Shown here: piece after piece, positions 2,178 to 44,071 of the stretch
How positions within the stretch are numbered: the first letter of the stretch is position 1
Layout: every line of letters starts with the position of its first letter
Source of the DNA: Alphaproteobacteria bacterium
GTDB lineage: Bacteria; Pseudomonadota; Alphaproteobacteria; Caedimonadales; UBA9215
Assembly (NCBI GenBank): GCA_965204765.1
Contig: CBDBFG010000003.1
Location: forward strand, 33,412-97,411
DNA: 64,000 bases
Direction of reading: 5' to 3'
Position numbers and translations under genes: made by a program
Notes under the pieces: model-generated
Seen by the model: only the letters and a program-made list of their open reading frames with translations
What the model was told of the DNA's origin: nothing
Databases searched by the model: none

Positions 2178-3827
2178 CTAAGATGCAAAATACTTCTTAT
2201 TCACCACTACATTATATTTGCTACGCAAATAATTGTGGTATAATCCAACTATATCTGACTTTACCAAATTATTTAGAATATTCTTAAATTCTTTTGTCTC
2301 TTGATTATTGAGTTTCTGTGGATACTCCACATGAGCAACCTTGACGAATAAGAAACTATCCACGTCACCTTGATCAATAGAAGATAATTTATCTACTTTA
2401 CTTTTATTCTTCTTTAAACGCACAGGAACAACCGTATTACCATTTCTGTCCAGCATAAACAATCTCGATAAGCTAGAATGTGGAATATCATAAACCGCAG
2501 AATCTATTATCTCGTCACGCTTTGCCTTAAAACTAGTCAAACTCAATTTGTTTAAGGACGCAGTAGTAAGAAAGCTATTCTTATTGTTACTCAAATCATT
2601 CTGTAATCTAGTCACCATCTCTTTTACAGCAACCATTTTTTGTTTATGCACATATGCTTTTTTAACATTGTGCATTGCTTCATCAAAATTCATTTGTTTG
2701 GGCTTCACGACATCATGTACGTACACTATAAAAAACAAGTTCTTGCTTATTTTTGATTCTTCTGCAGTAGTTAGTTGCTCGGTTTCTGCTTGAAATGCGA
2801 ATTTAGTAATTTCTTGGTCAATCCCTTGCATTGAGGCCTCAAGAAGACTGATAGATTTAAAACTCTTAAAACGAAACTTATGCTCTTTGGCAATATCACT
2901 CAAGGTATCACCATCTTCAAACTTGCTGAAAATAATATTGGATTTTTCCGTAACAATTTCTAATCTTTTCTCTTGTAGCAGTTTATCCTTTATAATCTTT
3001 TTGGCTTCCGCACTAGAAAAGTTTTTATATTTCGTATTCTTCTCAATTTTATATATTGCGTCCACATCACGTGGCGAAACAGTAACTTTTGCTTTATTAA
3101 GATCCAATATTACCGCATCAAAGGTTCTACGCTCAGAATCAATGAATTGCCTTGTATTCTTGCCATAATACTCTCGCAATTCTTCTCTAGATGGTGATTT
3201 ATTATAGTTTAACTTGTTTGCATCTATCACCATTGCTTCAAAAGTACGCATTTGATTTTGCCATTGAAAAACTGGCTTCACAGCGATTGATGGCAACACT
3301 ATTTGTCCAGTTAAAGCAGATATAACCCTAGATCGCAAAATATCTCTTTTTAAGTAACTCACATAATCTTTTTCAGATACGAAACCCATATTGCGAATAA
3401 AACGATCAAAAACTTCCTTGGAAAAATCTCCCTTAGAATCCAAAAATATTGCTTGTTTCTTGATAAAATTCACTACATAGTCGTCACTGACTGCTATCTT
3501 AAATTGTTCGGCCTCTAGTGCTATCAAAGAATCATTGATTAATTTTTCCAGAACTTCACGATCAAACCCCATCTCTACGGCTTGCTTAAAAGAAATGTCC
3601 TGGCCTGTTTTTACTTTTAAACTCAATAATGAACGGCCAAGCTCTTTACGTAGTTCTTGAATTGAAATTTTTCTGTTACCGACATTGGCTACGGTCATAT
3701 CTCTTGACATACCAATCATCCGCAAACCGTCTTGCCCACCCCACAAAAACACAAAACTCAGCGCTAGTAACAAAAATAAAATCTTCGCAACAATACCGGA
3801 ACTAGCTTTACGTATTCTTTCAATCAT
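2178..3827 (-). CDS. ppiD: periplasmic chaperone / peptidyl-prolyl isomerase D-like (SurA N-terminal domain protein)
   Basis: 549 aa with an N-terminal membrane anchor (GIVAKILFLLLALSFVFLWG) and a long chaperone-like body, matching PpiD family architecture. Confidence 0.65.
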   Translation of the reverse strand: MIERIRKASSGIVAKILFLLLALSFVFLWGGQDGLRMIGMSRDMTVANVGNRKISIQELRKELGRSLLSLKVKTGQDISFKQAVEMGFDREVLEKLINDSLIALEAEQFKIAVSDDYVVNFIKKQAIFLDSKGDFSKEVFDRFIRNMGFVSEKDYVSYLKRDILRSRVISALTGQIVLPSIAVKPVFQWQNQMRTFEAMVIDANKLNYNKSPSREELREYYGKNTRQFIDSERRTFDAVILDLNKAKVTVSPRDVDAIYKIEKNTKYKNFSSAEAKKIIKDKLLQEKRLEIVTEKSNIIFSKFEDGDTLSDIAKEHKFRFKSFKSISLLEASMQGIDQEITKFAFQAETEQLTTAEESKISKNLFFIVYVHDVVKPKQMNFDEAMHNVKKAYVHKQKMVAVKEMVTRLQNDLSNNKNSFLTTASLNKLSLTSFKAKRDEIIDSAVYDIPHSSLSRLFMLDRNGNTVVPVRLKKNKSKVDKLSSIDQGDVDSFLFVKVAHVEYPQKLNNQETKEFKNILNNLVKSDIVGLYHNYLRSKYNVVVNKKYFAS

Positions 3828-3965
3828 CTTTTAATTCTATTTTACTTTTCCACAACGAATTTACGTGATTGCCCTGCACATAACACGATTGACTAACATA
3901 TCGATTGATACTACCCTAAAACTTGATTTATAACAAAGACTATTTACAAAAAAAGAGTAAAATTT

Positions 3966-4763
3966 ATGTTGCAGCTCATAGATAGCCATTGCCACCTTAA
4001 TTACTACGCCTCCGCTCAAGAACTTGATACAGTTATAAAAAGGGCACAAACCAACGGAATAAAACATATAATTAATATCTGCACCAAACTAGACGAAGCA
4101 GACAAAGTAACAGATATAGCGGACCAATATAATGACATCTTTGCTAGTGTAGGCATTCACCCCAATGAAGCCAAAACAGCATCAGCCGAGCAAACACCGG
4201 AACAATTATATGAATGGTTGATACAGTGGTGCAAACACCAAAAAGTAATTGCTATTGGGGAAACAGGATTAGACTATCATTACCAATATAGTGCACGTAC
4301 TACGCAACTAGAATCATTTAAAATCCATATTCAAGCTGCAAAAACAACTGGTTTGCCACTGGTAATTCATACAAGATCTGCTGCGGAAGACACTATCAAC
4401 ACATTAAAACAAGAACAAGGCAATATCACCGGTGTTATTCATTGCTTTAGCGAGACTAAATGGCTAGCTGACAATGCAATGGACTTGGGTTTTTATATCT
4501 CGATACCTGGAATTATAACTTTTAAGAAGTCTGATGATTTGCGCAAAATAGTTGCAACTATTCCATTAGAAAGACTATTACTTGAAACAGACGCCCCTTT
4601 TCTTGCCCCTGTTCCATATCGTGGCAAACAAAATGAACCAGCATATATGATCAAAACTGCAGAACTGCTAGCAGAGTTAAAAAATGTATCCTTAACAGAT
4701 ATTGCAAAAGTTACGACTGCAAATTGCCAGAAACTTTTTCAAAAAGGTAAATTTTATGAATAA
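3966..4763 (+). CDS. tatD: TatD-family metal-dependent DNase/hydrolase
   Basis: 265 aa with the N-terminal LIDSHCHLN motif, [20 protein letters not shown] and [11 protein letters not shown] motifs. Confidence 0.85.
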
Positions 4764-7383
4764 CGCGTACGATGCAATGACTCCGATGATGCAACAATAC
4801 CACAACATCAAGGAACAACACCAAGATTGCGTATTATTCTATAGGATGGGTGATTTTTACGAATTGTTTTTTGAAGATGCAATTAAGGTTGCCAAAGCAT
4901 TAGATATCACTCTGACTAAACGAGGCAAAACCAACGGCCAAGACATACCCATGTGTGGCGTGCCATTTCATGCTTATGAAAACTACTTGGCCAGATTGGT
5001 AAAACAAGGATACAAGGTTGCAATTTGTGAACAAACTGAATCACCGCAACAAGCAAAAAAACGTGGACATAAGGCCGTAGTAAATAGAGAAGTGGTCAGA
5101 ATTGTAACCCCTGGCACCTTAACAGAAGAACATTTATTGGACTCGAAAAAACATAACTTTCTGGCCTTGATATGTGATGATGAAACAACAAAGACCAAAC
5201 GCTTAAGCTTTGCCGTAATTGATATTTCTACGGGAGAATTTTATGTTGAATCTTGTGACTATGAACAGTTGTCCACATTGATATCACGATCAAACCCCAG
5301 TGAAATGGTAATTCCAGAACGAATTCTAAATAACACAGAGCTATATGAAATTTTCAAAGAGCATAAAAAATATTTAACTATTTTACCGAATAGCAGATTT
5401 GACACTAAAAACTCTTCATCGCGTTTACAAGAACACTATCAAGTTAAAACATTAGATGGCTTTGGTTCATTTTCATCTAATGAGATAATGGCCGCAAGTA
5501 GTTTACTTGATTATGTACAACTAACCCAAAAAGGGGAAATGCCGCGTTTAACCACTCTGCAACGATTTATCCAGGGTGACTGTGTTAACATTGATGCATC
5601 CACCAGAAGAAATCTGGAATTAATTAAAACTTTATCAGGTGAATCTCAAGGATCATTACTAAATGCTATTGACCACACTTCTACCGCCAGTGGTGGAAGA
5701 TTGTTATCTTTACACCTATCCTCACCCATGTGTGATAAAGAGTTAATCGAAAAACGACTAGATAAAATAGAATTTTTCATTAATAACTCCAGCATTAGAA
5801 ATAAAATCTTTACTTTACTAAATGACTGTCCAGATATTGAAAGATCTATCAGTAGATTATGCGTAGGCCGAGGAGGACCAAGAGACTTAGCCGCTATACT
5901 ACAGGGTTTGACAGCTGCACAAAATATTAAAACTATCTTGGCTAACAGTAGCGATATAGCTATTAAGACCGCCAACAATAGAATAAGCGACCAACAAGCC
6001 ATTATTGACATCTTACGACAAGCTCTAAATATAGATAAACTACCATTACTTGCACGGGATGGAGGGTTTATTAAAGTCGGCTATTGCCAAGAATTAGACG
6101 AAATCATTAACATACGCGACCAAGGAAAATCTTTTATTATTGCCTTGCAAGATAAATATAGAAAAGAGCACAATATTCCTTCGTTGAAAATTAAGCATAA
6201 TAACGTATTAGGGTACTATATAGACGTTACTAATACCCATATAGATAAAGTACCGTATGATTTCATTCATCGCCAAACCATGCCTAATTCCACCAGATAC
6301 AGCACGGTAGAGTTAAATGAACTAGCACAGAAATTGTATAATGCTACCGAACAAACCACCCTTATAGAACTAAAGATATATGATGAGCTTGTTAATATTG
6401 TAATTGATAACAACGAAGAAATAGCCAGAATATGCCAAACTATCTCTGAAATTGACGTTGGAATATCACATAGTATCCTGGCCGTAGATTATAACTATTG
6501 CCGACCTATAATTACTGCTGATTTAGCAATGAACATCCAAGATGGCCGTCATCCAGTAGTAGAAAACTCTCTTCATGCACAAGAGAATGAACCATTTATT
6601 GCTAATGATTGCACTATTACTAATAACAATATTATTCTACTAACCGGACCTAATATGGCGGGGAAAAGTACTTTCTTGCGCCAGAATGCTCTAATAATAA
6701 TTCTAGCGCAAATTGGCTGTTATGTACCTGCCACCTCTGCCACCATTGGCATAGTCGATAAATTATTCTCACGGGTAGGAGCTTCGGATAATCTATCAAA
6801 AGGCCACTCTACTTTTATGATAGAAATGATTGAAACCGCATTAATTCTGAATCAAGCTACAGAAAAATCTTTCGTCATCTTAGATGAGGTTGGACGCGGA
6901 ACTTCTACTCATGACGGATTATCCATAGCTTGGGCTACTTTAGAGTATATTCATTCAACTATTAAATGTCGTACCTTATTTGCTACACACTATCATGAAT
7001 TAACCGAACTTGATCAGGAACTAAAACATCTTAAATGCTATACTATGCAAATAAAAGAATGGCAAGATAAAGCCATTTTCCTTCATAAAGTAGTTAAGGG
7101 TAATGCCGCAAAGTCGTATGGTATATATGTCGCAAAATTGGCTGGTATTCCGCAACAAGTTATCAACAGAGCAAATAATATATTACAAAATTTAGAACAA
7201 CTACAACCACCAACTAACGATAATTGGTCACTGTTTGACAATGATAATATGACGGAATCGACCATAACTAACGATACTATCCATACTAAAATAGTGGAGA
7301 AATTAAATACAATTTCTGTTGATGATCTATCACCACGAGAATCATTAGAATTAATGTATGAACTAAAAAGAATGATCTCGTGA
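4756..7383 (+). CDS. mutS: DNA mismatch repair protein MutS
   Basis: [35 protein letters not shown]-terminus, Walker [21 protein letters not shown] and DEVGRGTS motifs. I prefer the ATG at 4756 ([15 protein letters not shown]) over the ORF-track start at 4702; it overlaps the tatD stop by 8 nt. Confidence 0.95.
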
Positions 7384-10944: not shown

Positions 10945-12300
10945 CTATTTCTTTTTACGCAGATAAGTAGGAATATCATGCACATCTGCCATCTCTTCAT
11001 CAACCACACTAGCATCATTGACGATTTTACCCACATCATGCACTTCTGGTGTCTGCTCTGTGACAACTTCGTCATTTTTACCAGACAGTGTTTCAAAAAA
11101 CCTACTGAAAAAACCTTTTTTCTTTGCTAACTTGTCCGCATCGTCATTGGCATGTTCTGGCTTATCATTATCACCAAATTCATACATCTCACTACTAGCA
11201 GAATCACTATACGATACCCCAGATTGCAAACCATCATCTGCGTTAAGAGCACCAGCATCGGAATATAACTGTTTTTTAGCGTTTGCTCCTTTTGCCAGCC
11301 CTTTTTTAACTGATTCTGAATCTATACCAGTAGCAACAACAGATACACGTAAGTTACCTTGCATACTTTCATCAAATGTCGATCCAAAAATAATATTAGT
11401 TTCAGTAGTTAAATCGGCATCGACTTCTTCTCTAATGCGATTCGCCGCTTCATCTACCTCGAAAAGAGTCATATCAAGACCACCAGTAATGTTAATTAAC
11501 ACACCCTTGGCACCACGCATTGAAACATCATCTAACAACGGGTTGGCTATAGCAGCTTCAGCAGCAGCAATTGCTCTATTCTCTCCAGACGCTTCCCCAG
11601 TGCCCATCATAGCTTTACCCATCTCAGTCATTACCGTCCTAATATCAGCAAAGTCCAAATTAACTAGTCCAGGCATAACCATCAGGTCCGTCACTCCACG
11701 AACACCAGAATATAAAACATCATCAGCTAATTTAAAGGCGTCTTTAAAAGTTGTTTTTTCATTGGAAATTCTAAATAAGTTTTGGTTAGGAATAATAATT
11801 AGAGTATCAACATGTTGTTCCATTTCTTTGATACCACTAATAGCGGTACGTGTGCGATGTGGACCTTCAAAATTAAACGGCTTAGTCACCACCCCAACAG
11901 TTAAAATCCCCAATTCTCTTGCCGCTTGTGCTATTACGGGCGCCGCACCTGTACCAGTACCTCCACCCATACCAGCAGTAATAAATACCATATTACTACC
12001 TTTGATATGCCTGATGATCATATCCTTGCTCTCTTCAGCTGATGCTCTACCAACTTCTGGATGAGATCCAGCGCCAAGTCCTTGTGTAATTTCTAATCCT
12101 AGTTGAATTTTTTTATCTTCTGGAACTAAAGACTGTGTTAAATGTTGCGCATCAGTATTACAGGCAAGATAACCCACACCCTGTAAATTATAACGTATCA
12201 TATTATTGACAGCATTATTACCCGCACCACCAACACCGATTACTGTAATTTTTGGCCCTAATTCTCCATTAGTGACCGTATCTAAGGACTTTTTTTCCAT
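10945..12300 (-). CDS. ftsZ: cell division GTPase FtsZ
   Basis: [13 protein letters not shown], the tubulin signature [13 protein letters not shown], a long disordered linker and the C-terminal peptide [10 protein letters not shown]. Confidence 0.97.
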
Positions 12301-12547: not shown

Positions 12548-12907
12548 ATGAATAAGTATAAATTATTAATCATTCTCCTGACTGGATCTTACGTTATGGC
12601 ACACCATAGTCTATCTGAAGACGAGAGAATGAAAGATGACAAATATATGAATTTTATGAGAACATACCTAGGGTTTCAAGTAAAAGCCCGGTTTGCTATA
12701 CATGGCGTAATGGGAGCTAAACCAGAGCTTAAAGGGCAGTTATTAACCAGATTTAACCAACTAACAGACGAAGCCATAGCAAAAAAGATAATCACTATAC
12801 AAGACAAACAAAAATTTAAACAAGCAATTCTAAGAGAAAACACAACAGTAAACACAAACAAGCCAGACCCAGCATCGATTGCTTTAACTCTCTATCCAAA
12901 GTCATAA
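12548..12907 (+). CDS. hypothetical small secreted protein (orphan)
   Basis: 119 aa ORF with a signal-peptide-like N-terminus (MNKYKLLIILLTGSYVMA). I recognise no family. It sits at the left edge of the accessory island. Confidence 0.45.
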   Translation: MNKYKLLIILLTGSYVMAHHSLSEDERMKDDKYMNFMRTYLGFQVKARFAIHGVMGAKPELKGQLLTRFNQLTDEAIAKKIITIQDKQKFKQAILRENTTVNTNKPDPASIALTLYPKS

Positions 12908-12998
12908 TGTAAACGACCTCATAATACATAGAGCATTATACACTTCTTTTTTAACTAAATTGTACCCTTAAGACCTTCGCGAACTATCAAGCATTGAG

Positions 12999-13036
12999 CA
13001 TTGTTGGGTTAAATCAAAGGTATCCAAACTTTCATC
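12999..13036 (+). repeat. left inverted repeat (IR-L) of the invertase cassette
   Basis: cattgttgggttaaatcaaaggtatccaaactttcat matches the reverse complement of 14164-14203 (cattattgggttaaatcgtatcaaggtatctaaacttccat). About 33 of 37 aligned positions agree, with one 4 nt indel. Confidence 0.75.
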
Positions 13037-13311
13037 TTAGTTTACTGGGACCTTTTATCTGCCACTGATACTTCTATTTCCAATACCCCAATTTTTCTAC
13101 ATTTTATAACACTATATTGGTGTATAGTCTGAATGCCATAGAATCTTCATAATTTATTATCTGAGAAATTATATTCTCCCGGCATATTAAAATGTTTCTA
13201 TGATTTTTTAGATATATAATTAATATCTCTGCTTCAAAAATCCTTAAAATAGAAAAACTTAAGACTAGATTTAAAATAACCACACATTAGCAAAAATACT
13301 AATCTATGCCA

Positions 13312-13494
13312 TTAATCTTTTATATTAAAAGCAGTGCGAATTAATTTTATAGGAAGAGCAAAAAAATATTTTCTCTCCTCACCAGTAAATTTTAGTGGTT
13401 TATCAAATGCGTTTTTTCCTTTATGGTCAAAATTTTCATTCGAGGCATAATTTCTCCTTTTTTTGTTTATTTTATTGCAGAAACATCTTACCAT
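13312..13494 (-). CDS. hypothetical 60 aa ORF inside the invertase cassette (weak)
   Basis: ORF only; no recognisable motif and no clear RBS. Listed because it is the only other ORF between the inverted repeats. Confidence 0.2.
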   Translation of the reverse strand: MVRCFCNKINKKRRNYASNENFDHKGKNAFDKPLKFTGEERKYFFALPIKLIRTAFNIKD

Positions 13495-13595
13495 TCACTT
13501 CAGTTGTGAAATAGGTTTGTGCAAGACTAAAAACCGTATTGCTACGTTAATAAAATAAGCTTGCGCCAACGTTTGTTAGCAAAACTAGCAATATT

Positions 13596-14174
13596 ATGAT
13601 TTATAGTTATAGCATAATCTCAACAGGTGAATATCAGAGTAACAAATTACAATTATCTGCATTTAAAAAAGTAGGGGTTGAAAAAATATTCTCTGAAAAA
13701 ACGTCTGGTGGAAAATGGGAAAGACCAGAATTTCATAAACTGATCAATAAAATCAGAAAAGGTGACACAATTGTGGTTTGGAAGTTGGATAGATTATTGG
13801 GATCATCAAAAGACTTGTTAGTAATAATTGATAAAATTAACAAGAAAGAAGCTGGATTCAAAAGTGTAACTGAAAATATTGATACTACCACTACATCAGG
13901 ATGTATGATGATGCAAATGGTTGATGCTTTCAGAGTTTGAACGTGCAATGGTCAGAGAGCGTACAAAAGCTGGTTTGGATGCTACCAGGGCTGAAGAAAG
14001 AATTGGGAGACCAAAACCCAAGCTCAAGCCAGATCAAAAAAATACGTTGTGGATAATGTGATGACAGGACGAAAATCAGGTGCTGATATGGCTAGGATAT
14101 ATGATGTAAGTGAAGCTACAATTTCACGCACTGTAGCTCAATATAGAATACTACAAGAAAAAATGGAAGTTTAG
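13596..14174 (+). pseudogene. serine recombinase, Hin/Gin/resolvase family DNA invertase, frameshifted
   Basis: Frame 0 gives MIYSYSIISTGEYQ...GDTIVVWKLDRLLGSSKDLL...GFKSVTENIDTTTTSG...MVDAF and stops at 13940. Homology continues in frame +1 (SEFERAMVRERTKAGLDATRAEERIGRPKPKLKPDQ), then returns to frame 0 after the A7 run at 14036-14042 (KKYVVDNVMTGRKSGADMARIYDVSEATISRTVAQYR, an HTH_7-like tail) and ends at TAG 14172-14174. The total is 192 codons, as in Hin/Gin. Confidence 0.85.
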
Positions 14175-14203
14175 ATACCTTGATACGATTTAACCCAATA
14201 ATG
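14164..14203 (-). repeat. right inverted repeat (IR-R) of the invertase cassette
   Basis: Partner of 12999-13036. It overlaps the last three codons and the stop of the recombinase pseudogene. Confidence 0.75.
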
Positions 14204-14239
14204 GCTTTTATTAATGACAGAAATTAATCTTAACTTTAC

Positions 14240-16111
14240 TCGGGATAGGGGGACCCTCACGGGTTTTCCCTCCCACACCACCTGCCATACGGGTCCGTAG
14301 CAAGGCGGTTCAATTTAGTTAAATGCTTTCATTGTTGATAATTTTGGTACTCCAAGTTTATCAAAATAATTTATGCCCATAGCTATTTTAGTTCCAGTAG
14401 TGTCACTAATTCTCCAAGGACCCTTACTTGATATTGCAGTTCTATATGCAGTTCTCAAATCGACACCTAGTTTAATAAGATTTTTCATGCGACGTCTATA
14501 TGTTTTCCATTGTTTCCATTGGACACATCGCAGTCTGTGTCTTATCCATTTGTCTAAGATCTTTAATACAGAGCGAGTTTCACAAATTCCAAAATATGCG
14601 TACCATCCATGTAGATATTGAGATAGAGTTTTAATTCTCTTCTCCATACCTATACTCCAGTTTCTGCTGGTAATTTTCTTTACCTCTTGCTTGAACTTTT
14701 GTATTGCTTTTGGTGATATACCTATATTAGATATTTCTGGTCTTCTAACTAGGCAAAAACCTAAAAATGATCTTTTCCTTGATGATGCAACCGCACTTTT
14801 CTCCTGATTTACTCGGAGCTTAAGTTTTTGCATTATAAACTTATTTATACTTTTCATTACTCTATTTCCAGAACGTTCACTTTTGACGTATATATTGCTA
14901 TCATCAGCGAATCTGCAAAATTTATGACCTCTGTCTTCCAATTCTTTATCAAATTCATCTAGGATAATATTTGAAAGAAAAGGTGAGAGCGGACCACCTT
15001 GTTGCACTCCTTCTTTAGAATATTGCTCAACTCCATTTTTCATAATTCCACTTTTAAGATAAGCCCGTATAAGTTTTAATAGTCTTTGATCTTTTATGTT
15101 TTTCGCCAATTTACTCATCAATCGATCATGATTAATGAAATCGAAGAATTTTTCGAGATCAATGTCTACCACGGTGCTATATCCTTGTCGCACATATTCT
15201 TTAGCTTTTAATATAGCCTGATGTGCGGATTTACCAGGACGAAATCCATAACTATTTTCTGAAAACAGCGGATCCCATTTCTGTTGCAAAATTTGAAGAA
15301 TGGCTTGTTGTATAAGTCTATCTATAGTGCATGGAATAGATAATTTACGCACACCTTTGCCATTAGGTTTAGGTATTTCAATTAGTTTTATTCCTTTCGG
15401 TTTGTATGCACCGTTTAGAAGAGAAGATTTTATAGTTAGCCAGTGTAATTTTAAGAATTCTGGAAGTTCATTGACAGTAATATTATCTATCCCTGCGCTT
15501 CCTTTGTTCTTACACACCTTTCTATAGGCAATTATAAGATTATTTCTAGAGCATATTTCCTCCATTATCCTGTCATTAAACATTGGCTTTTCGTTATGTT
15601 GTTCAGCTGTTGATAAATCAGCACTCGAGTCAGCTACTTCAGGCTTCACCTTCAGCTCATATCCCAAGTTCTTATTCAAGTTTGACTGCCTTTTCATATT
15701 ATCAACATTTCTTCAACTACTACTTAGCTTTCTAGATTGTTCAGGCCTTCGGACACCGTGTCCTACTATGCCATCTGCGGACTTCTGTATAGCATTACAA
15801 AACCTCCCGATTTTGCTAGTTTGTTTTCACAAAACATCCATACAGATCTCCCGTGGTAAGCACTATAACTTTCTGTACACAACTGCTGAATTTACGCTTT
15901 GAGTTCTTGATGGATATGGACTTCGCAATCACAAGCTTGCTCTTCCAACTCTAACGCCTCATATTCAGTTTCTGTTCGTCAGCTCATACTTTTGTTTCAC
16001 ACTTCCTTCAGACAAGACCTCACGATATTGCCCTTGTGCTTCCCTAACCTTCAGCTCCATCAGCTTGGTAAGAGGACTTTCACCTCTCTAGTAATAGTGC
16101 ATGCACGGCAC
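14240..16111 (-). mobile_element. bacterial class C (IIC) group II intron, ~1.87 kb; boundaries approximate (+/- a few nt)
   Basis: The RT/maturase ORF is flanked by ribozyme sequence. The 5' end on the minus strand reads GTGCCGTGCATGCAC...GAGAGGTGAAAGTCCTC...TCTGAAGGAAGTG...GAATATGAGGCG. Just after the ORF stop comes the domain V-like hairpin TTGAACCGCCTTGCTACGGACCCGTATGGCAGGTGGTGTG, with a CGC triad and a 2 nt 3' bulge. A GTGA-tetraloop hairpin with a bulged A (14246) follows as the domain VI candidate. An 11 bp stem-loop plus T-run lies in the 5' exon. Confidence 0.85.
14315..15697 (-). CDS. group II intron reverse transcriptase/maturase (no endonuclease domain)
   Basis: 460 aa with RT motifs: GSAGIDNITV, RKLSIPCTIDRLIQQA, YGFRPGKSAHQA, VVDIDLEKFFDFINHD, QGGPLSPFLSNIILDEFDKEL, FCRFADDSNIYV. 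The maturase X domain has the RHRLRCVQWKQWKT region and a short C-terminal tail ending YFDKLGVPKL. Confidence 0.95.
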   Translation of the reverse strand: MKRQSNLNKNLGYELKVKPEVADSSADLSTAEQHNEKPMFNDRIMEEICSRNNLIIAYRKVCKNKGSAGIDNITVNELPEFLKLHWLTIKSSLLNGAYKPKGIKLIEIPKPNGKGVRKLSIPCTIDRLIQQAILQILQQKWDPLFSENSYGFRPGKSAHQAILKAKEYVRQGYSTVVDIDLEKFFDFINHDRLMSKLAKNIKDQRLLKLIRAYLKSGIMKNGVEQYSKEGVQQGGPLSPFLSNIILDEFDKELEDRGHKFCRFADDSNIYVKSERSGNRVMKSINKFIMQKLKLRVNQEKSAVASSRKRSFLGFCLVRRPEISNIGISPKAIQKFKQEVKKITSRNWSIGMEKRIKTLSQYLHGWYAYFGICETRSVLKILDKWIRHRLRCVQWKQWKTYRRRMKNLIKLGVDLRTAYRTAISSKGPWRISDTTGTKIAMGINYFDKLGVPKLSTMKAFN

Positions 16112-16808
16112 GCTTATAAAAAATAGCAATATAAAACATATTGCTATTATTCCAGATGGAAATCGTAGGTGGGCAGAGTCAAAAGGACTTAATCGTCAAG
16201 AAGGTCATCATGCAATGGTACGCTCAATCCCTTCATTATTTGCTTTTTTAATCGATAGTGGGGTTCATACTGTGACTTTTTGGTTAGCCAGCCCAGAAAA
16301 TTTTATAAAAAGAGATGATAGTGAAATAGCTCATCTTTATGAATATTTTGAAATTTTAATTGATAAGCTATTAAGTGGATACTCTAATACTAAGATTTGT
16401 CACTTAGGAGAGAAACACATTTTTCCCAAGAGATTCTTAAACAAGATACGTTTAGCGGAGCAAACCACTCAAAACTGTAACGGTAATATTATTAATTTGG
16501 CAATAAACTATTCTGCAAATCAAGAAATAATATGGATTGCAAATAAAATAAAGGATTCATATGTCTCAAATGAAAGTTGGTGTGAGCAAACTATAGAAAA
16601 ACTGTTATGTAAAGAAAACCGTGTTTACTCTCACATTGATATGATTATAAGAACTGGAAGAGAGAAACGTTTATCTGGTTTTATGAGTTGGTGGTCTTCA
16701 TACGCAGAGCTATTTTTTGTACAAAAATACTTTCCAGACTTTTCTTGCGATGATTTAAAAAATTGTATTTATGATTTTTCAAACAGAAACAAAAGGTTTG
16801 GTAAGTAG
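16101..16808 (+). CDS. divergent cis-prenyltransferase (undecaprenyl-diphosphate synthase family); the present start codon lies inside the intron terminus
   Basis: 235 aa with KHIAIIPDGNRRWA (canonical IIMDGNGRWA), LASPENF (FSxENW), NLAINYS and IIRTGREKRLSGFMSWWSSYAELFF..YFPDF (IRTGGExRxSNFLLWQ..YxE..F....WPDF). Isolated from the usual frr-uppS-cdsA context. Confidence 0.8.
   Translation: MHGTLIKNSNIKHIAIIPDGNRRWAESKGLNRQEGHHAMVRSIPSLFAFLIDSGVHTVTFWLASPENFIKRDDSEIAHLYEYFEILIDKLLSGYSNTKICHLGEKHIFPKRFLNKIRLAEQTTQNCNGNIINLAINYSANQEIIWIANKIKDSYVSNESWCEQTIEKLLCKENRVYSHIDMIIRTGREKRLSGFMSWWSSYAELFFVQKYFPDFSCDDLKNCIYDFSNRNKRFGK
16122..16148 (-). terminator. terminator-like stem-loop (11 bp stem, 5 nt loop, T-run on the minus strand); candidate IIC intron homing motif
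   Basis: The minus strand reads AATAGCAATAT-GTTTT-ATATTGCTATT followed by TTTTATAAGC and then the intron 5' end GTGCC. The same bases encode NSNIKHIAI of the uppS-like ORF on the plus strand. Confidence 0.6.
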
Positions 16809-16903: not shown

Positions 16904-18274
16904 TTATTTTTTGTCCAAGTCCATAATACCCAGAGATTTTAACTTACGATGCAAAGCAGAACGCTCCATTTCAATAAAGTCTGCTGTCTTAGAAACATTG
17001 CCACCAAATCTGTTTATTTGTGCCAAAAGATAATCTGTTTCAAATTTGCTCCTAGCCTCACGCAATGGTAAAGATAGCAATTTGTTTACGGCATCACCAC
17101 CATCACCACTAGATGAAACAATATCAGATGGTAAATGCTCTAACTCTACAATGGAGGTTATCCCCTGTGCGGTTAACAATATCCATTCAATAATAGTCCT
17201 GAGTTGTCTTATATTACCAACCCACCTGTACTGCTGCAGTGATAAAATAGCTTCTTCACTAAATCGCACTGCTGGCACCTTTAGTAACTTTGCTGTTTCA
17301 TTACCATAATACTGCAATAGCTCCGGTATATCTTGTGCCCTAGCAGACAAACTAGGCACGCTGACAGCAGTAACGTTCAAACGTTCATATAACTCACTAT
17401 TAAACAACGATTCTTCTACTAAAGATTGCAAATCAACAGTAGTAGAAGAAATTATCCGCACATCTACTTCGACTGGATCTTCGCCATTGATACGAAAAAA
17501 TCTATTATTCTGCAAAACCTTTAATAAGCTCTGTTGTGCAGCAATTGATAATCTATCAACTGATTCTAAAAATAAGGTACCTTTATGTGATTGCTCTAAC
17601 AAACCGGCATTAAATCCATTTTCTTTTTCTATGCCTAGCAATGCTTGCTCTAATTCCTCAGGCAAAAAGTTACTACAATTCAAAGTAACAAATCTACTAG
17701 CATGACGTTGAGATTTATTATGAATTATTCTGGCAATAGATTCTTTACCTGAACCATGCTGACCATGCAACACTACCCGACTATTAGTACCGGCAACTTT
17801 CTCTATACTGCTTACCAAATTTTGCACAGCACTGGAATTACCCAGCAAGACCCCGTCATCATCTAAATATTTATTTTTGAGCTCTGTGTTTTCTTGCTGC
17901 AATTTATGTGATTCCAAAGCACGTTGCACCAAAACTATAAGTTTTTCTGCCTTAAATGGTTTCTCAATAAAGTCATACGCTCCACTTTTAATTGCAGATA
18001 CTGCGGTTTCAATATTGCCATGCCCACTCATCATTAATACTGGCAAATCTATGTGATCTTTGACCACTTGTGCCAATATTTCCAAACCATCAATTTTATT
18101 ATCACCCAACCAAATATCTAATAAAATCAAATGTGGACGTCTATTTTTTACTTCTTGCAGAGCATCACCACCATTATAGGCATAACGACAGCTATAACCC
18201 TCATCTTCCAATATATCTCCTACTAACTGACAAATATCACGTTCATCATCAACAATCAGAATATCAAATGCCAT
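16904..18274 (-). CDS. ntrX: two-component response regulator NtrX (receiver + AAA+ + Fis HTH)
   Basis: MAFDILIVDDERDI...HLILLDIWL receiver, GQHGSGKE Walker A, and a C-terminal HTH (GGNVSKTADFIEMERSALHRKLKSLGI). The start is taken at the internal Met (18274), 2 nt after the ntrY stop. Confidence 0.9.
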   Translation of the reverse strand: MAFDILIVDDERDICQLVGDILEDEGYSCRYAYNGGDALQEVKNRRPHLILLDIWLGDNKIDGLEILAQVVKDHIDLPVLMMSGHGNIETAVSAIKSGAYDFIEKPFKAEKLIVLVQRALESHKLQQENTELKNKYLDDDGVLLGNSSAVQNLVSSIEKVAGTNSRVVLHGQHGSGKESIARIIHNKSQRHASRFVTLNCSNFLPEELEQALLGIEKENGFNAGLLEQSHKGTLFLESVDRLSIAAQQSLLKVLQNNRFFRINGEDPVEVDVRIISSTTVDLQSLVEESLFNSELYERLNVTAVSVPSLSARAQDIPELLQYYGNETAKLLKVPAVRFSEEAILSLQQYRWVGNIRQLRTIIEWILLTAQGITSIVELEHLPSDIVSSSGDGGDAVNKLLSLPLREARSKFETDYLLAQINRFGGNVSKTADFIEMERSALHRKLKSLGIMDLDKK

Positions 18275-18276
18275 TA

Positions 18277-20463
18277 TTATCCTTCCAAATGAAATACTAA
18301 CCTTACCACTGCAGACCAATTACGCTCAGTTTCCAAATTCATACGCCCGCCATGATCTTCTATAATTTTTTTCACAATTGCTAAGCCCAAACCTGTACCT
18401 TTGGGCTTAGTAGTCACATAAGGCTCGGCAAGCTGTTCTGTATTTTGCGGGAAACCAGAACCCGTATCTTTTACCAATATTACTAGCTCTTTATTACCCA
18501 AAGTGACTGATATACTAATTTTTCCGTCCTTACCCTGTTCATAGATAGAGTCTATAGAATTCTGCATAATATTTGTTAATACTTGACTTATTTGTGCAGC
18601 ATCACACACAAAATGCTGGTGACTAGGACCTCTGAAAACAAAATTAATATCAGGATTAGAAGTTTTATATTGCTCGATATGTTGCTTGATTATTTTAATA
18701 ATATCTTCTTCTTGCATATTAGGATCTGGCATTTTAGCAAAATCAGAAAATGATTTCACCATATCCCCTATATGGGATACTTGCCTGACTATTGTCGCCA
18801 CACAATTATCAAATTTTTCCGCATCTTTTGTGATTTGTGTCGCATATTTTCTTTGTAGTTGTTCAGCAGATAACTGTATCGGGGTCAATGGATTGCGTAT
18901 TTCATGTGCAATACGTCTTGCCACATCCGCCCACGCGGCTTTACGTTGTGCATATAACAAATGCGTAATATTCACAAAACTAATAATATAGCCCTGACAC
19001 AAACTATGATCCTGACTATCTCTGATTATTTGCAAATGTACATGCAGGGTATGCATTTCTTTCTTTCTAATAATTTTAATTTGCCTAGAAAAACTTTTAT
19101 TATCCTGTTCAAACTGATTTAATAATTCTTCTACTTCTGGAAAACAACTAGAAATCTTTTTGCCGATATAGCTATCTATATCGGTAATGTTTAATAAATC
19201 AGAGGCGTAATCGTTGATAATTTGTACTATATTTTGCCTATCAATACTAATTACTCCGGATCGCACACTAGATAAAATATCCTCTATAAATCTTCGACGT
19301 GAATCTATCGATGCACTAGCCTGAACCAACTTTTCCTTTTGTTTTTCCAATTTTGTCGTCATTCTATTGAATGAATTCATCAATAACGATATTTCATCTT
19401 TATCAATACCGGGATTGACTCGTATGGACAAATCACCTTTGATTACTTTTTCTGAGGCTGAAATTAAACTACCAATTGGTTTAGCAATTCTTCCAGCAAA
19501 AACCAATGCTACCCACACAGCAATTAATAATAAAACAAAGGCTATAGCTATAAAAATCAACCCCAAGTACAACTGAAATCTAGTCTGATTTTTATCGACC
19601 TCGTTATAGTTACTCACGGCATTTTGGACATCTTTTATTCTTTTTGATACCGCAGGATCAACAATACGACCGACCAATAAATACGCATCAATATCAGGAG
19701 CTATTTTGATTAATGCACGCACACGATCACCAGCATCATTGGTTTTGATTACCACCTCATTTTTTGAATTCTTTAACTCAAGAGCAGAAAACACTTCAAA
19801 CTCCAAGGTAAAACTTAATTTAGAACGGGCTATCACCTCGGGTACACCATTAAAAACTAAAGCTTCATCGATATTGCGCAGCCCAATCTGCGTATCTATT
19901 AGATTATTAAACCTTGCTTGATTATGTTGTAATATCTTGTAATTGTGGGCAATCTCTTGTGCCATCGCGTATACATTTGCGCTAATTACTTTTTTATGTT
20001 CCGCCAAATAAGATTGGGCTACTTTAGTTGATTCTGATAATGCCGTGCTAACGCTGCTACTGAACCATTTTTGTATCCCCATATTAAAGATAATCGCTGA
20101 AAAAATCATCATTAATATAGCGGGCGTAATAGTTAACAAGCTAAAAATCATCACAAATCTTGTGTGCAGCTTTGCCGCTTGATTACCAGATTTTCTATCC
20201 GCCCAAGCAATAGAAAGCTTACGCACAATGGCTAACGTTAGTAACATTAATATTAATAAATCGATATTTAAAATTATCGTAAGATGATTAGAGTTAATAT
20301 TATTTAGTTCTGATTGTGCGAACACATAATAGGTTACACAAGACGCGATACTGGATAAAAATATCAACACATACATTAACTTTTTTCTAAAACTTTTATG
20401 TTCAAAAGTTCCTTTTAAAGCGCGAATATTTTTGCTGTATGCCCCCCAAAAATGGTAACTCAT
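18277..20463 (-). CDS. ntrY: sensor histidine kinase NtrY
   Basis: 728 aa with N-terminal TM segments, HAMP, PAS, the H-box RRIAHEIRNPLTPIQLSAEQL, the N box NIMQNSIDS and the G boxes DTGSGF / GTGLGLAIVKKIIEDHGG. Confidence 0.9.
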   Translation of the reverse strand: MSYHFWGAYSKNIRALKGTFEHKSFRKKLMYVLIFLSSIASCVTYYVFAQSELNNINSNHLTIILNIDLLILMLLTLAIVRKLSIAWADRKSGNQAAKLHTRFVMIFSLLTITPAILMMIFSAIIFNMGIQKWFSSSVSTALSESTKVAQSYLAEHKKVISANVYAMAQEIAHNYKILQHNQARFNNLIDTQIGLRNIDEALVFNGVPEVIARSKLSFTLEFEVFSALELKNSKNEVVIKTNDAGDRVRALIKIAPDIDAYLLVGRIVDPAVSKRIKDVQNAVSNYNEVDKNQTRFQLYLGLIFIAIAFVLLLIAVWVALVFAGRIAKPIGSLISASEKVIKGDLSIRVNPGIDKDEISLLMNSFNRMTTKLEKQKEKLVQASASIDSRRRFIEDILSSVRSGVISIDRQNIVQIINDYASDLLNITDIDSYIGKKISSCFPEVEELLNQFEQDNKSFSRQIKIIRKKEMHTLHVHLQIIRDSQDHSLCQGYIISFVNITHLLYAQRKAAWADVARRIAHEIRNPLTPIQLSAEQLQRKYATQITKDAEKFDNCVATIVRQVSHIGDMVKSFSDFAKMPDPNMQEEDIIKIIKQHIEQYKTSNPDINFVFRGPSHQHFVCDAAQISQVLTNIMQNSIDSIYEQGKDGKISISVTLGNKELVILVKDTGSGFPQNTEQLAEPYVTTKPKGTGLGLAIVKKIIEDHGGRMNLETERNWSAVVRLVFHLEG

Positions 20464-42959: not shown

Positions 42960-43017
42960 TAACCATCCCCCATCTACTTGATTATACCTTAGAATTGTGT
43001 TACCACCAGTTTATATT

Positions 43018-43138
43018 CATCGGGGTGCCTGAATACGTAATATTTACCATTCACGCGTAAATATAGCACAAAAATTCGTATATGGCTGAGATTATACCCG
43101 TAGTGAACCTGATATGGGTAATGCCAACGAAGGAAAGT
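43018..43138 (+). promoter_or_regulatory. TPP (THI-box) riboswitch controlling thiBPQ
   Basis: Conserved aptamer elements GGGGTGCC (43022-43029), CTGAGA (43086-43091), ACCCG, GAACCTGATATGGGTAATGCCAACGAAGGAAAG. An extended P3 hairpin spans 43033-43081. The 3' aptamer tail AGGAAAG doubles as the SD, 7 nt before the thiB ATG. Confidence 0.9.
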
Positions 43139-43144
43139 GAATAA

Positions 43145-44071
43145 ATGCGATTATGTCTTGTTGCATGCTTAATAATTATCAATCATAAAAGCTGGGCACA
43201 GCAACCTGTGCTAATCTGCATACATGAATCTATGTATCAATGTATCAAGAATATTATTCGCAAACAAAAAATAAACAATGTAAAATTACAATCATTTTCT
43301 AGATCATCATTAATACTGCAACTTAGAAAACATCATCCAGATATCATTATTGGTATCGACAATAGCCAAATACATGAATCCTATATATCCTCTATCACCG
43401 CCAAAATACCAAAGCAATTTTTTACTAAATTAACGGTACCATTCGAATGGACTAATGAATTTTATATACCATTTGCATACATGTACGGGGCATTTTTTTA
43501 TAACAGTAAAAAAGTTCAATTGCAGCAAACTAACCTGGAACAATTCCTTTGCTCGGCGGCTAAGCAATCTATTATACTACCAGATCCCAGGACATCCTCC
43601 ATTGGTAGAGTATGGTTATCCTGGCTACACCATAATCGTACCCGATTACCACATAGTTTGTTAAAACAAAAGGTTGCTTGTTATCCGAAAAACTGGCAAG
43701 CATGTTTTACACTTTTTCATAATAATAATGCCCATGTTATGTTTGGCTACACAACATCATATCTGTATTATCTTGCTAATAATATCAGTCATGTAAAATG
43801 GATCAATTTTACTAAGCAACCTCACCCTATAAAAGTATTTACCGTTATAGTGAACAAAAATTCTAACCATACTAAGTTGACCATAACAAAAATATTAACC
43901 TTCCTATATAGCAAACCTTTGCAAGACTCTCTCACACAATGTTATTGCTTTCCTGTTATCGATACTAATATTTCAGATGAATTTAAATTATGCATACCGT
44001 TGCGAAGTTACGTACCAATACCTGTCAAAGAAACTGAATTAATAAATAGTTGGTTTATAGGTAGTATCTGA
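43145..44071 (+). CDS. thiB: thiamine ABC transporter periplasmic binding protein
   Basis: Blocks align with E. coli TbpA/ThiB as I recall it: DIIIGIDNSQ (ADVVLGLDNNL), YIPFAYMYGAFFYNSKK (FVPFDYGYFAFVYDKNK), ILPDPRTSSIGRVWLSWL (IYQDPRTSTPGLGLLLWM), MFGYTTSYLYY (VLSYTTSPAYH). It has a signal peptide and an upstream TPP riboswitch. Confidence 0.8.
   Translation: MRLCLVACLIIINHKSWAQQPVLICIHESMYQCIKNIIRKQKINNVKLQSFSRSSLILQLRKHHPDIIIGIDNSQIHESYISSITAKIPKQFFTKLTVPFEWTNEFYIPFAYMYGAFFYNSKKVQLQQTNLEQFLCSAAKQSIILPDPRTSSIGRVWLSWLHHNRTRLPHSLLKQKVACYPKNWQACFTLFHNNNAHVMFGYTTSYLYYLANNISHVKWINFTKQPHPIKVFTVIVNKNSNHTKLTITKILTFLYSKPLQDSLTQCYCFPVIDTNISDEFKLCIPLRSYVPIPVKETELINSWFIGSI

Follow-up and report, generated by a model that had tools for sequence, protein, structure and literature searches.

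Class C (IIC) group II introns are generally regarded as harmless, since their usual place behind transcription terminators keeps them out of genes. They are found downstream of terminator motifs or of other inverted repeats, where the 5′ exon is read through a pairing of 3–4 bp at intron-binding site 1 (IBS1) together with the stem-loop (PMC1702495), and this terminator-type targeting has been described as a way of keeping clear of coding sequences (PMC7306698). The locus described here lies in a 64,000-nucleotide stretch of alphaproteobacterial DNA (the window; contig CBDBFG010000003.1), on whose plus strand a gene of the uppS family was very probably struck at its 5′ end by two unrelated mobile elements, a Tn3-family transposon and a class C intron. 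One end of the transposon would have come to rest 10 nt 5′ of the ATG at position 14214, the element later decaying to a 1.2-kb relic, and after the intron's arrival the original start and first eight codons would now lie 1.9 kb from the remaining gene. The order of the transposon and intron events, as told here, is one that we infer. Both elements belong to well-known kinds; what is unusual is the intragenic target and the replacement start codon borne by the intron, and as a case of mobile-element damage the locus is instructive but ordinary. It also provides a clear counter-example to the picture of class C introns as avoiders of genes, an antisense terminator-like hairpin having apparently drawn one of them into a gene for cell-wall lipid-carrier synthesis.

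The intron and its target

The element that separates the uppS-like body from the upstream in-frame ATG 14214 is a class C group II intron on the minus strand, as an earlier reading of this DNA made without database searches (the sequence-only reading) had supposed for an antisense intron in general. Within the ribozyme, the Rfam model group-II-D1D4-3 matches at 15861–16029 (132.4 bits) and D1D4-1 at 15744–15819 (54.9 bits), both on the minus strand. The Rfam family for domains V and VI (DV/DVI) gives no match to the intron at E ≤ 1; the last 74 nt (14239–14312) form a DV-like hairpin that has a 2-nt bulge and a stem of ACCGCC...GGUGGU, followed by a DVI whose bulged A lies 7 nt from the 3′ end. 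The intron-encoded protein (IEP), a reverse transcriptase (RT)/maturase, contains the Pfam domains RVT_1 and GIIM only and scores 386 bits against TIGR04416, the group II RT/maturase model. Its closest solved structure is the GsI-IIC RT, matched over the full length (2.7e-134), with other IIC maturases after it, first one from Eubacterium (1.1e-101), as against 1.3e-34 for the IIA protein LtrA and 2e-23 for a IIB protein. Because the intron is antisense to uppS, it cannot be spliced out of the uppS transcript.

Further features describe the intron within its family. Its ribozyme score is the highest in that family, and the IEP is the single member of its cluster at 90% identity. The RT active site reads RFADD, and FADD recurs in 2 homologues, with YADD in 50 and YGDD in 14. 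The G+C content at third codon positions is 0.26 in the IEP and 0.25 in uppS, which matches the 0.27–0.30 of host genes, so neither of the two is a fresh import.

The minus-strand 5′ exon reads AAUAGCAAUAUG-UUU-UAUAUUGCUAUU-UUUUAUAA/GCGUG, the slash marking the splice junction, and is made up of a stem, a U-run and a 4-nt IBS1. With a folding energy of -13.2 kcal/mol (z -4.15), the hairpin has a stability equalled by 0/200 shuffles, and only two other perfect hairpins of 11 bp or longer occur within the 64 kb. Its plus strand is AAT AGC AAT ATA AAA CAT ATT GCT ATT, or N-S-N-I-K-H-I-A-I, which are codons 11–19 of uppS and take in the His-Ile-Ala-Ile of the conserved uppS motif. Lying as it does about 760 nt beyond the ntrX stop codon, the hairpin is not the terminator of ntrX. 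The placement of the intron directly past a hairpin fits published descriptions of class C introns and is that of nearly all homologous introns, of which 14 loci were collected from genomes and 65 from metagenomes (IEP identity to the window 47–66% for full-length matches); 27 of 40 of their 5′ flanks fold with z < -2.

These features suggest how a gene could have become a target. A class C intron needs a terminator-like stem-loop and a 3–4-nt IBS1, and no long target sequence. The antisense strand of uppS codons 11–19 by chance forms such a hairpin, with 12 bp, a U-run and AUAA, and the AUAA can pair with UUGU of the loop that holds exon-binding site 1 (EBS1). The intron would then have reverse-spliced into the strand opposite uppS, 25 nt into the coding sequence.

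The interrupted reading frame and its product

Removal of the intron (14239–16113) joins ...AATCTTAACTTTA to TTATAAAAAATAGC..., that is, 14238 to 16114, and gives one unbroken frame from ATG 14214: MTEINLNFIIKNSNIKHIAIIPDGNRRW. This frame opens at 14202, after the TAA at 14199–14201 that is located inside the right inverted repeat of the transposon, and its ATG lies 10 nt past that repeat (14160–14203), as the sequence-only reading had noted. The same reading had placed the intron ends at 16111 and 14240 and had warned that a small error in either would break the fusion. When the exact ends were taken from homologous introns, the fusion remained in frame, because the two end shifts sum to 3 nt: the corrected join reads MTEINLNF-I-IKNSN, and the join at 14240/16111 reads ...NF-TL-IKNSN (NFTLIKN). 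Mixed joins, which combine one earlier end with one corrected end, meet a stop and have no canonical start.

The present open reading frame (ORF) at 16101–16808 starts within the 5′ terminus of the intron, another point on which the sequence-only reading holds. It opens one codon before its ATG, after the TAG at 16095–16097, and from 16104 to the conserved block KHIAIIPDGNRRW the sequence contains no in-frame ATG, GTG or TTG. The ATG is the complement of a CAT at intron positions 11–13 that 44/45 family members share; read from the opposite strand, the 5′ sequence G(U/C)G(U/C)GCCGNGCAUG that the family conserves gives ...CATGC..., and its ATG here falls in the uppS frame by chance. The intron-derived part of the ORF is MHGT and the C of Leu5, so that MTEINLNFI is replaced by MHGTL. 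The damage can be masked in this way: the 5′ end of the intron supplies a new in-frame start, and automatic annotation shows an intact UppS of 235 aa without any sign of the break.

The predicted product is a member of the UppS family. It scores 161.2 bits against TIGR00055 (curated cut-off 109.55) and 171 bits against PF01255 (cut-off 27), and it matches solved UPPS structures at about 1e-33, long- and short-chain enzymes giving similar E-values. Its closest relatives among 5.8 billion proteins are 37–43% identical, and those with names belong to candidate-phyla-radiation bacteria such as Roizmanbacteria, Shapirobacteria and Microgenomates; two of the contigs that carry relatives also contain mevalonate-pathway genes and an ATP-dependent ligase. 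That the nearest relatives are of candidate-phyla-radiation type although the genome context is alphaproteobacterial could reflect an old horizontal acquisition, or a replacement of the native uppS. Bacterial uppS genes usually lie next to frr and cdsA. Neither was present among the window ORFs scanned, and the neighbours of the uppS-like gene are instead the transposon relic, a 119-codon ORF, ftsZ and ntrX/ntrY.

An alignment of 18 sequences (the reconstructed form, the present ORF and 16 relatives) bears on two earlier claims about this enzyme. It had been described as deviating at conserved positions; IIPDGNRRWA is invariant in 18/18 sequences, and SPENF with an extra residue occurs in four relatives (P0003, P0006, P0009 and P0024), so these motifs are signatures of a subfamily. 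All 40 invariant columns are kept by the window protein, including D23, H17, S68, E70, N71, R188, E192, R194 and E207, and the predicted enzyme is not degenerate. The positions for catalysis and substrate binding that it retains comprise the Asp of DGNRRW, the His of GH, S-x-EN, RTGGE-R and an E close to the C-terminus. Excision of the intron had also been said to bring the N-terminus closer to the typical UppS length, which the alignment contradicts, since the relatives have about 3–14 residues before the invariant His, as compared to 12 in the present ORF and 16 in the reconstructed form. The N-terminal swap seems unlikely to affect the fold.

It had further been proposed that the gene is silenced three ways, by frameshifts in the recombinase, by loss of catalytic residues and by the antisense intron. 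This is not supported, as the decay of the recombinase is irrelevant to uppS and the ORF retains every invariant column. Judged from its sequence, UppS would be about equally likely to be functional or silenced. It could well be, with a probability somewhat short of even, that the intron killed the gene and that the uppS-like ORF is a young pseudogene, its in-frame ATG a coincidence, with a canonical second uppS doing the housekeeping. The gene has after all lost its start, its 5′ untranslated region and any promoter, and the plus strand of 14905–16100 contains no promoter-like site in a scan that performs no better than chance here (14 promoter-like sites, against 17.3 in shuffled sequence). 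An ATG would be in frame by chance in one case out of three. The intron, with its intact IEP and its top ribozyme score, seems young or maintained, so the lack of decay in uppS is uninformative, and both the candidate-phyla-radiation relatives and the absence of the frr-uppS-cdsA context fit an accessory paralogue. Against a pseudogene stands the 235-codon ORF itself, which is intact with all its conserved residues, in contrast to the decayed tnpR and tnpA beside it. In addition, the peptidoglycan-related genes ftsZ, asd and that for an M23 DD-endopeptidase are present, so the organism needs an undecaprenyl-diphosphate synthase; no second uppS exists within the 64-kb window; and the N-terminus is short and unconserved in this family, so that the exchange of nine residues for five should be harmless. 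Neither Shine-Dalgarno nor promoter scans were retained as evidence on expression, 22/35 genes being without a Shine-Dalgarno-like motif and promoters being at shuffle level.

It would be a further step to suppose that UppS is now expressed with the intron-derived ATG as its start. That the protein is still made from this antisense ATG, and is perhaps the bacterium's only undecaprenyl-diphosphate synthase, is less likely than not. If true, the 5′ sequence of the ribozyme (..GCAUG, in 44/45 relatives) would be a portable, outward-facing start codon, able to restore a gene interrupted close to its 5′ end, and a gene essential to the cell wall would owe its expression to a site within a selfish ribozyme that runs antisense to it.

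The identity of the original start requires a separate argument. The frame match by itself is weak evidence for ATG 14214, as about 40% of random AT-rich flanks should offer an in-frame start before an upstream stop is reached, an estimate from base composition. Retro-insertion, however, adds DNA and deletes none, and in conjunction with the lack of a canonical start downstream of the junction this means that the gene started upstream of the junction before insertion. There, ATG 14214 is the only canonical candidate, and it probably served as the working start of uppS. The alternative, that ATG 14214 was never a start, that the ancestral start lay nearer the conserved His (in the M-x-K-H style) and that the open frame is coincidental, is unlikely. 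It would suit the aligned homologues, which mostly begin 3–8 residues before the His, and the codon could since have mutated (for example, to the ATA at 16134–16136) or could have been a non-canonical ATT or ATA; but no in-frame ATG, GTG or TTG lies between the junction and the His, and the reconstructed junction gives a single unbroken frame with a canonical ATG. Two observations speak against ATG 14214 and the account built on it: the codon is not preceded by a Shine-Dalgarno motif, a lack shared with the 22 window genes noted above, and no intron-free orthologue of the locus was found, the best UppS homologue being only 43% identical. The contigs of the two top UppS homologues have contexts of the candidate-phyla type, with no synteny to the window.

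Position of the intron ends

The ends of the intron were located by comparison of 45 homologous 5′ junctions. In all 45 introns CCGNGCA follows immediately on a five-base block, G(T/C)G(T/C)G, and the bases upstream of that block vary; the 5′ end is therefore at 16113, 2 nt upstream of the GTGCC that had been taken for it. The block of the window is GCGTG, which is shared by nine homologues (L001, L002, L015–17, L019, L022, L024 and L027). The four nucleotides before the block pair with positions 3–6 of an eight-base loop in domain 1 (D1), with a family mean of 3.49/4 pairs; when loops were shuffled among introns the mean was 1.85 ± 0.17, and 0/2000 permutations reached the observed value. Examples of such IBS1/EBS1 pairs are UCAU/AUGA, UUAC/GUGA, UGUU/AACA and AUAG/CUAU, and in the window AUAA and UUGU are paired at 4/4 positions. 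EBS1 of the Oceanobacillus iheyensis IIC intron occupies the same loop positions.

At the other end, all homologous introns finish with CGA followed by T or G, and three metagenomic loci contain exact head-to-tail junctions, CGAT/GTG(T/C)G, that mark both termini at once (L023, at about 2570–2590; L028, at about 1770–1790; L034, at about 85–105). The supposed pairing partner of the last intron base, located in the linker between domains 2 and 3 (J2/3), is A in 21 introns that end in U and C in the window and L002, which end in G. The conserved CGA(T/G) end, the tandem junctions and the J2/3 match together place the 3′ end at 14239 (...CCCGAG). Thus the minus-strand intron of the sequence-only reading stands, and both of its boundaries have moved.

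It is very unlikely that 16111 and 14240 are the true ends, with an ancestral N-terminus of MTEINLNFTLIKNS..., and the case for them is best weighed together with the points against 16113 and 14239. GCGUG keeps G1, G3 and G5 of the GUGYG consensus and has C for U2, as in the nine homologues, and GUGCC fits the consensus better at position 2. Intron bases 1–2 are complementary to bases 1–2 of the EBS1 loop, so that UAAGC pairs with loop positions 1–5 (GCUUG) and the register of 16111 scores 3.73/4; the join at these ends is likewise in frame. The γ-γ′ covariation has an exception in L015, where C faces U. Finally, no second copy of the exact intron was found within the window, and the ends rest on homologues of 47–66% identity. 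On the other side, GUGCC is preceded by GC or GU in 45/45 homologues whatever the exon, so these two are intron bases; the permuted background for the register of 16111 is already 2.78, fixed bases being involved; and the T or G of the last column is conserved, stands directly against the next G1 in the three tandems and matches the J2/3 base. The IBS1-EBS1 register was rejected as an arbiter between the two 5′ ends, as both registers score well owing to the complementarity of intron bases 1–2 with loop bases 1–2. Likewise, the γ-γ′ covariation was set aside as sole proof of the 3′ end because of L015, and the tandem junctions carry that argument.

Several observations on these introns were made in passing. 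In the window, 16112–16113 are complementary to bases 1–2 of the D1 loop GCUUGUGA (within 15861–16029), a relation that was compared across 37 homologous introns: in 9/9 parsed GCGUG introns the loop begins with G, so C2 pairs, and in the GUGYG introns this loop base is G, C or A. Conceivably, the IBS1-EBS1 helix could extend into the intron. No exon bases separate the tandem introns, and those of L023 differ from one another, one starting with GTGTG and the other with GTGCG, which suggests that repeated insertion at one hairpin/IBS1 site may yield head-to-tail intron arrays. In L002, a metagenome-assembled genome of Acidobacteriota, a 148-nt 5′ fragment of the intron with its upstream hairpin (2246–2393) lies 1.3 kb upstream of a full copy (3582–5444), the hairpin and intron 5′ end having been duplicated as one unit.

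The transposon relic, the neighbourhood and known systems

The segment upstream of ATG 14214, which had been regarded as an invertase cassette, is a Tn3-family transposon with an internal deletion, now a 1.2-kb relic. Its two terminal repeats are about 80–85% alike with a 3-nt indel, and no third copy occurs within the window. The TnpA transposase of the Roseobacter plasmid pROLI127 aligns by tblastn over residues 9–79 at 13416–13204 (E 3e-12) and over its C-terminal 21 aa at 13194–13132 (E 3e-4), which leaves an internal deletion of about 900 codons. The tnpA start (13494, minus strand) and the tnpR start (13596, plus strand) diverge across a gap of about 100 nt. In Tn3 this intergenic gap is the location of res; no res subsites were recognised at the present locus. 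The closest solved structure to tnpR is the Gin invertase (9e-30); an intact relative, P0243, is 81% identical and retains YSRIS and DRLSRS, two motifs that are YSIIS and DRLLGS in the window.

An intact relative of the element itself is found on two 1-kb contigs (L085 and L086, Logan assemblies of SRR23871856 and SRR23871858), with 84% DNA identity over 13264–14193 (930 nt). The small minus-strand ORF beside the recombinase in L085 continues ...EQHRLVFLIMCGYFKSS, matches DUF4158 from profile position 1 (4.8e-4) and has matches in 1342 plasmid records, most of which, among the matches listed, are annotated 'Tn3 family transposase'. The right flank of this relative differs from that of the window and lacks uppS. 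No close relative of the host MutS or UppS was found anywhere, and the element may be one that moves between AT-rich hosts. One observation counts against a simple insertion: no 5-bp target duplication is present, the flanks being TTGAG (12994–12998) and GCTTT (14204–14208). The duplication may have decayed, or the two ends may derive from different events; it may also be that the transposon did not insert exactly at 12999–14203.

The transposon reading is preferred because it accounts for every feature of the segment, and the switch reading only for the repeats and the recombinase. The phase-variable read-out proposed earlier, in which a Hin-like invertible switch controlled a uppS paralogue before the intron arrived, is extremely improbable: it draws on a serine recombinase whose nearest solved structure is Gin, flanked by inverted repeats of about 40 bp and pointing towards ATG 14214 just past the right one, but it is disfavoured by the Tn3 transposase N-terminus joined to its last codons, the tnpA/gap/tnpR layout and terminal repeats like those of pROLI127, the intact copy with a right flank free of uppS, promoter-like sites no commoner than in shuffled sequence and a recombinase that is a pseudogene. 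No hix- or gix-like dyad symmetry was found by eye in the repeats, nor was any outward promoter or evidence of inversion found at 12999–14203. For genome scanning, the lesson is that a serine recombinase between inverted repeats may mimic a phase-variation switch though it is a Tn3 relic; the deciding clue here is a 60-codon transposase stub on the opposite strand.

The surrounding DNA is AT-rich (35% G+C) and has ordinary alphaproteobacterial housekeeping genes: mutS, uvrC, pgsA, rpiB, ftsZ, ntrY/ntrX, hdaA, accB/accC, der, asd, glyQS, tatC and serS. The window MutS has no relative above 60% identity; its named matches are Alphaproteobacteria, and its relatives (≤60% identity) share no gene order with the window. 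From ftsZ to ntrX, the order is the 119-codon ORF, the recombinase region between inverted repeats, the RT ORF (minus) and the 235-codon ORF (plus). The coordinates are collected in Table 1. The 119-codon ORF (12548–12907, plus strand) has a signal-peptide-like N-terminus and no NCBIfam match, and before the transposon it would have been about 100 nt 5′ of the uppS start on the same strand. Elsewhere in the window, a thiamine pyrophosphate (TPP) riboswitch at 43011–43153 (plus strand; 54.8 bits, Rfam gathering score 54.3) ends at the start of an ORF at 43145–44071.

Table 1. Features of the region between ftsZ and ntrX, in window coordinates
Feature	Position	Strand	Remarks
ftsZ	10945–12300	minus	Left border of the studied region
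Left terminal inverted repeat	12999–13038		Pairs with 14160–14203; CAAAGGTA..AAAC core as in the pROLI127 repeats
tnpA remnant	13132–13494	minus	N-terminal fragment 13204–13494 (ORF 13312–13494) joined to last ~21 codons, 13132–13194
tnpR (serine recombinase) pseudogene	13596–14174	plus	Three frames; catalytic Arg residues replaced; Pfam Resolvase 8.2e-25
Right terminal inverted repeat	14160–14203		Overlaps the tnpR stop codon
Probable original uppS start	14214–14238	plus	ATG, 7 codons and the first base of codon 9, severed by the intron
Group IIC (class C) intron	14239–16113	minus	1875 nt; 5′ GCGUG to CCCGAG 3′; ends from 45 homologous introns
Intron-encoded RT/maturase (IEP)	14315–15697	minus	460 aa, intact; no endonuclease domain
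Present uppS start codon	16101–16103	plus	Reverse complement of CAU, intron positions 11–13
uppS-like body	16114–16808	plus	Pfam Prenyltransf 3.3e-50 (235-codon ORF from 16101)
Target hairpin	16122–16148	minus	11-bp perfect inverted repeat (12 bp as RNA), then UUUUAUAA; intron 8 nt past the stem
ntrX	16904–18319	minus	Right border of the studied region

Similar comparisons can be drawn with described systems for each component. Like the UppS proteins defined by TIGR00055 and PF01255, the window enzyme scores above the curated cut-off and keeps the conserved Asp, His, Arg and Glu positions, whereas it belongs to an IIPDGNRRWA/SPENF subgroup with its nearest members in the candidate-phyla radiation, and its first codons are derived from an intron. 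The relic resembles the Tn3-family element of Roseobacter litoralis pROLI127 in its divergent tnpA and tnpR, in the gap of about 100–140 nt between them and in its terminal repeats, which are 36–44 bp long (36 nt in pROLI127), contain the CAAAGGTA core and in one case abut the tnpR stop codon; it differs in the loss of about 900 tnpA codons, in a tnpR that is frameshifted and has lost its catalytic arginines, and in having no visible 5-bp target duplication. With the invertible promoter switches of the Hin/Gin type it shares a small serine recombinase (closest to Gin) between inverted repeats and a gene downstream, but the window segment contains transposase remnants and its repeats are transposon ends; it does not seem to act as a switch of this type or to be one of them.

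The closest known counterparts of the intron are the bacterial class C introns, among them B.h.I1 of Bacillus halodurans and GsI-IIC of Geobacillus stearothermophilus. As in those introns, the IEP, which matches the GsI-IIC RT over its full length, has no endonuclease domain, insertion took place a few nucleotides past an inverted repeat followed by T's, and the 5′ exon would be read via an IBS1-EBS1 pairing of 3–4 bp. In contrast to them, the window intron begins with GCGUG instead of GUGYG, as do nine other homologues, and its stem-loop is no gene's terminator: it is a cryptic antisense hairpin inside a coding sequence, and the intron interrupts a gene.

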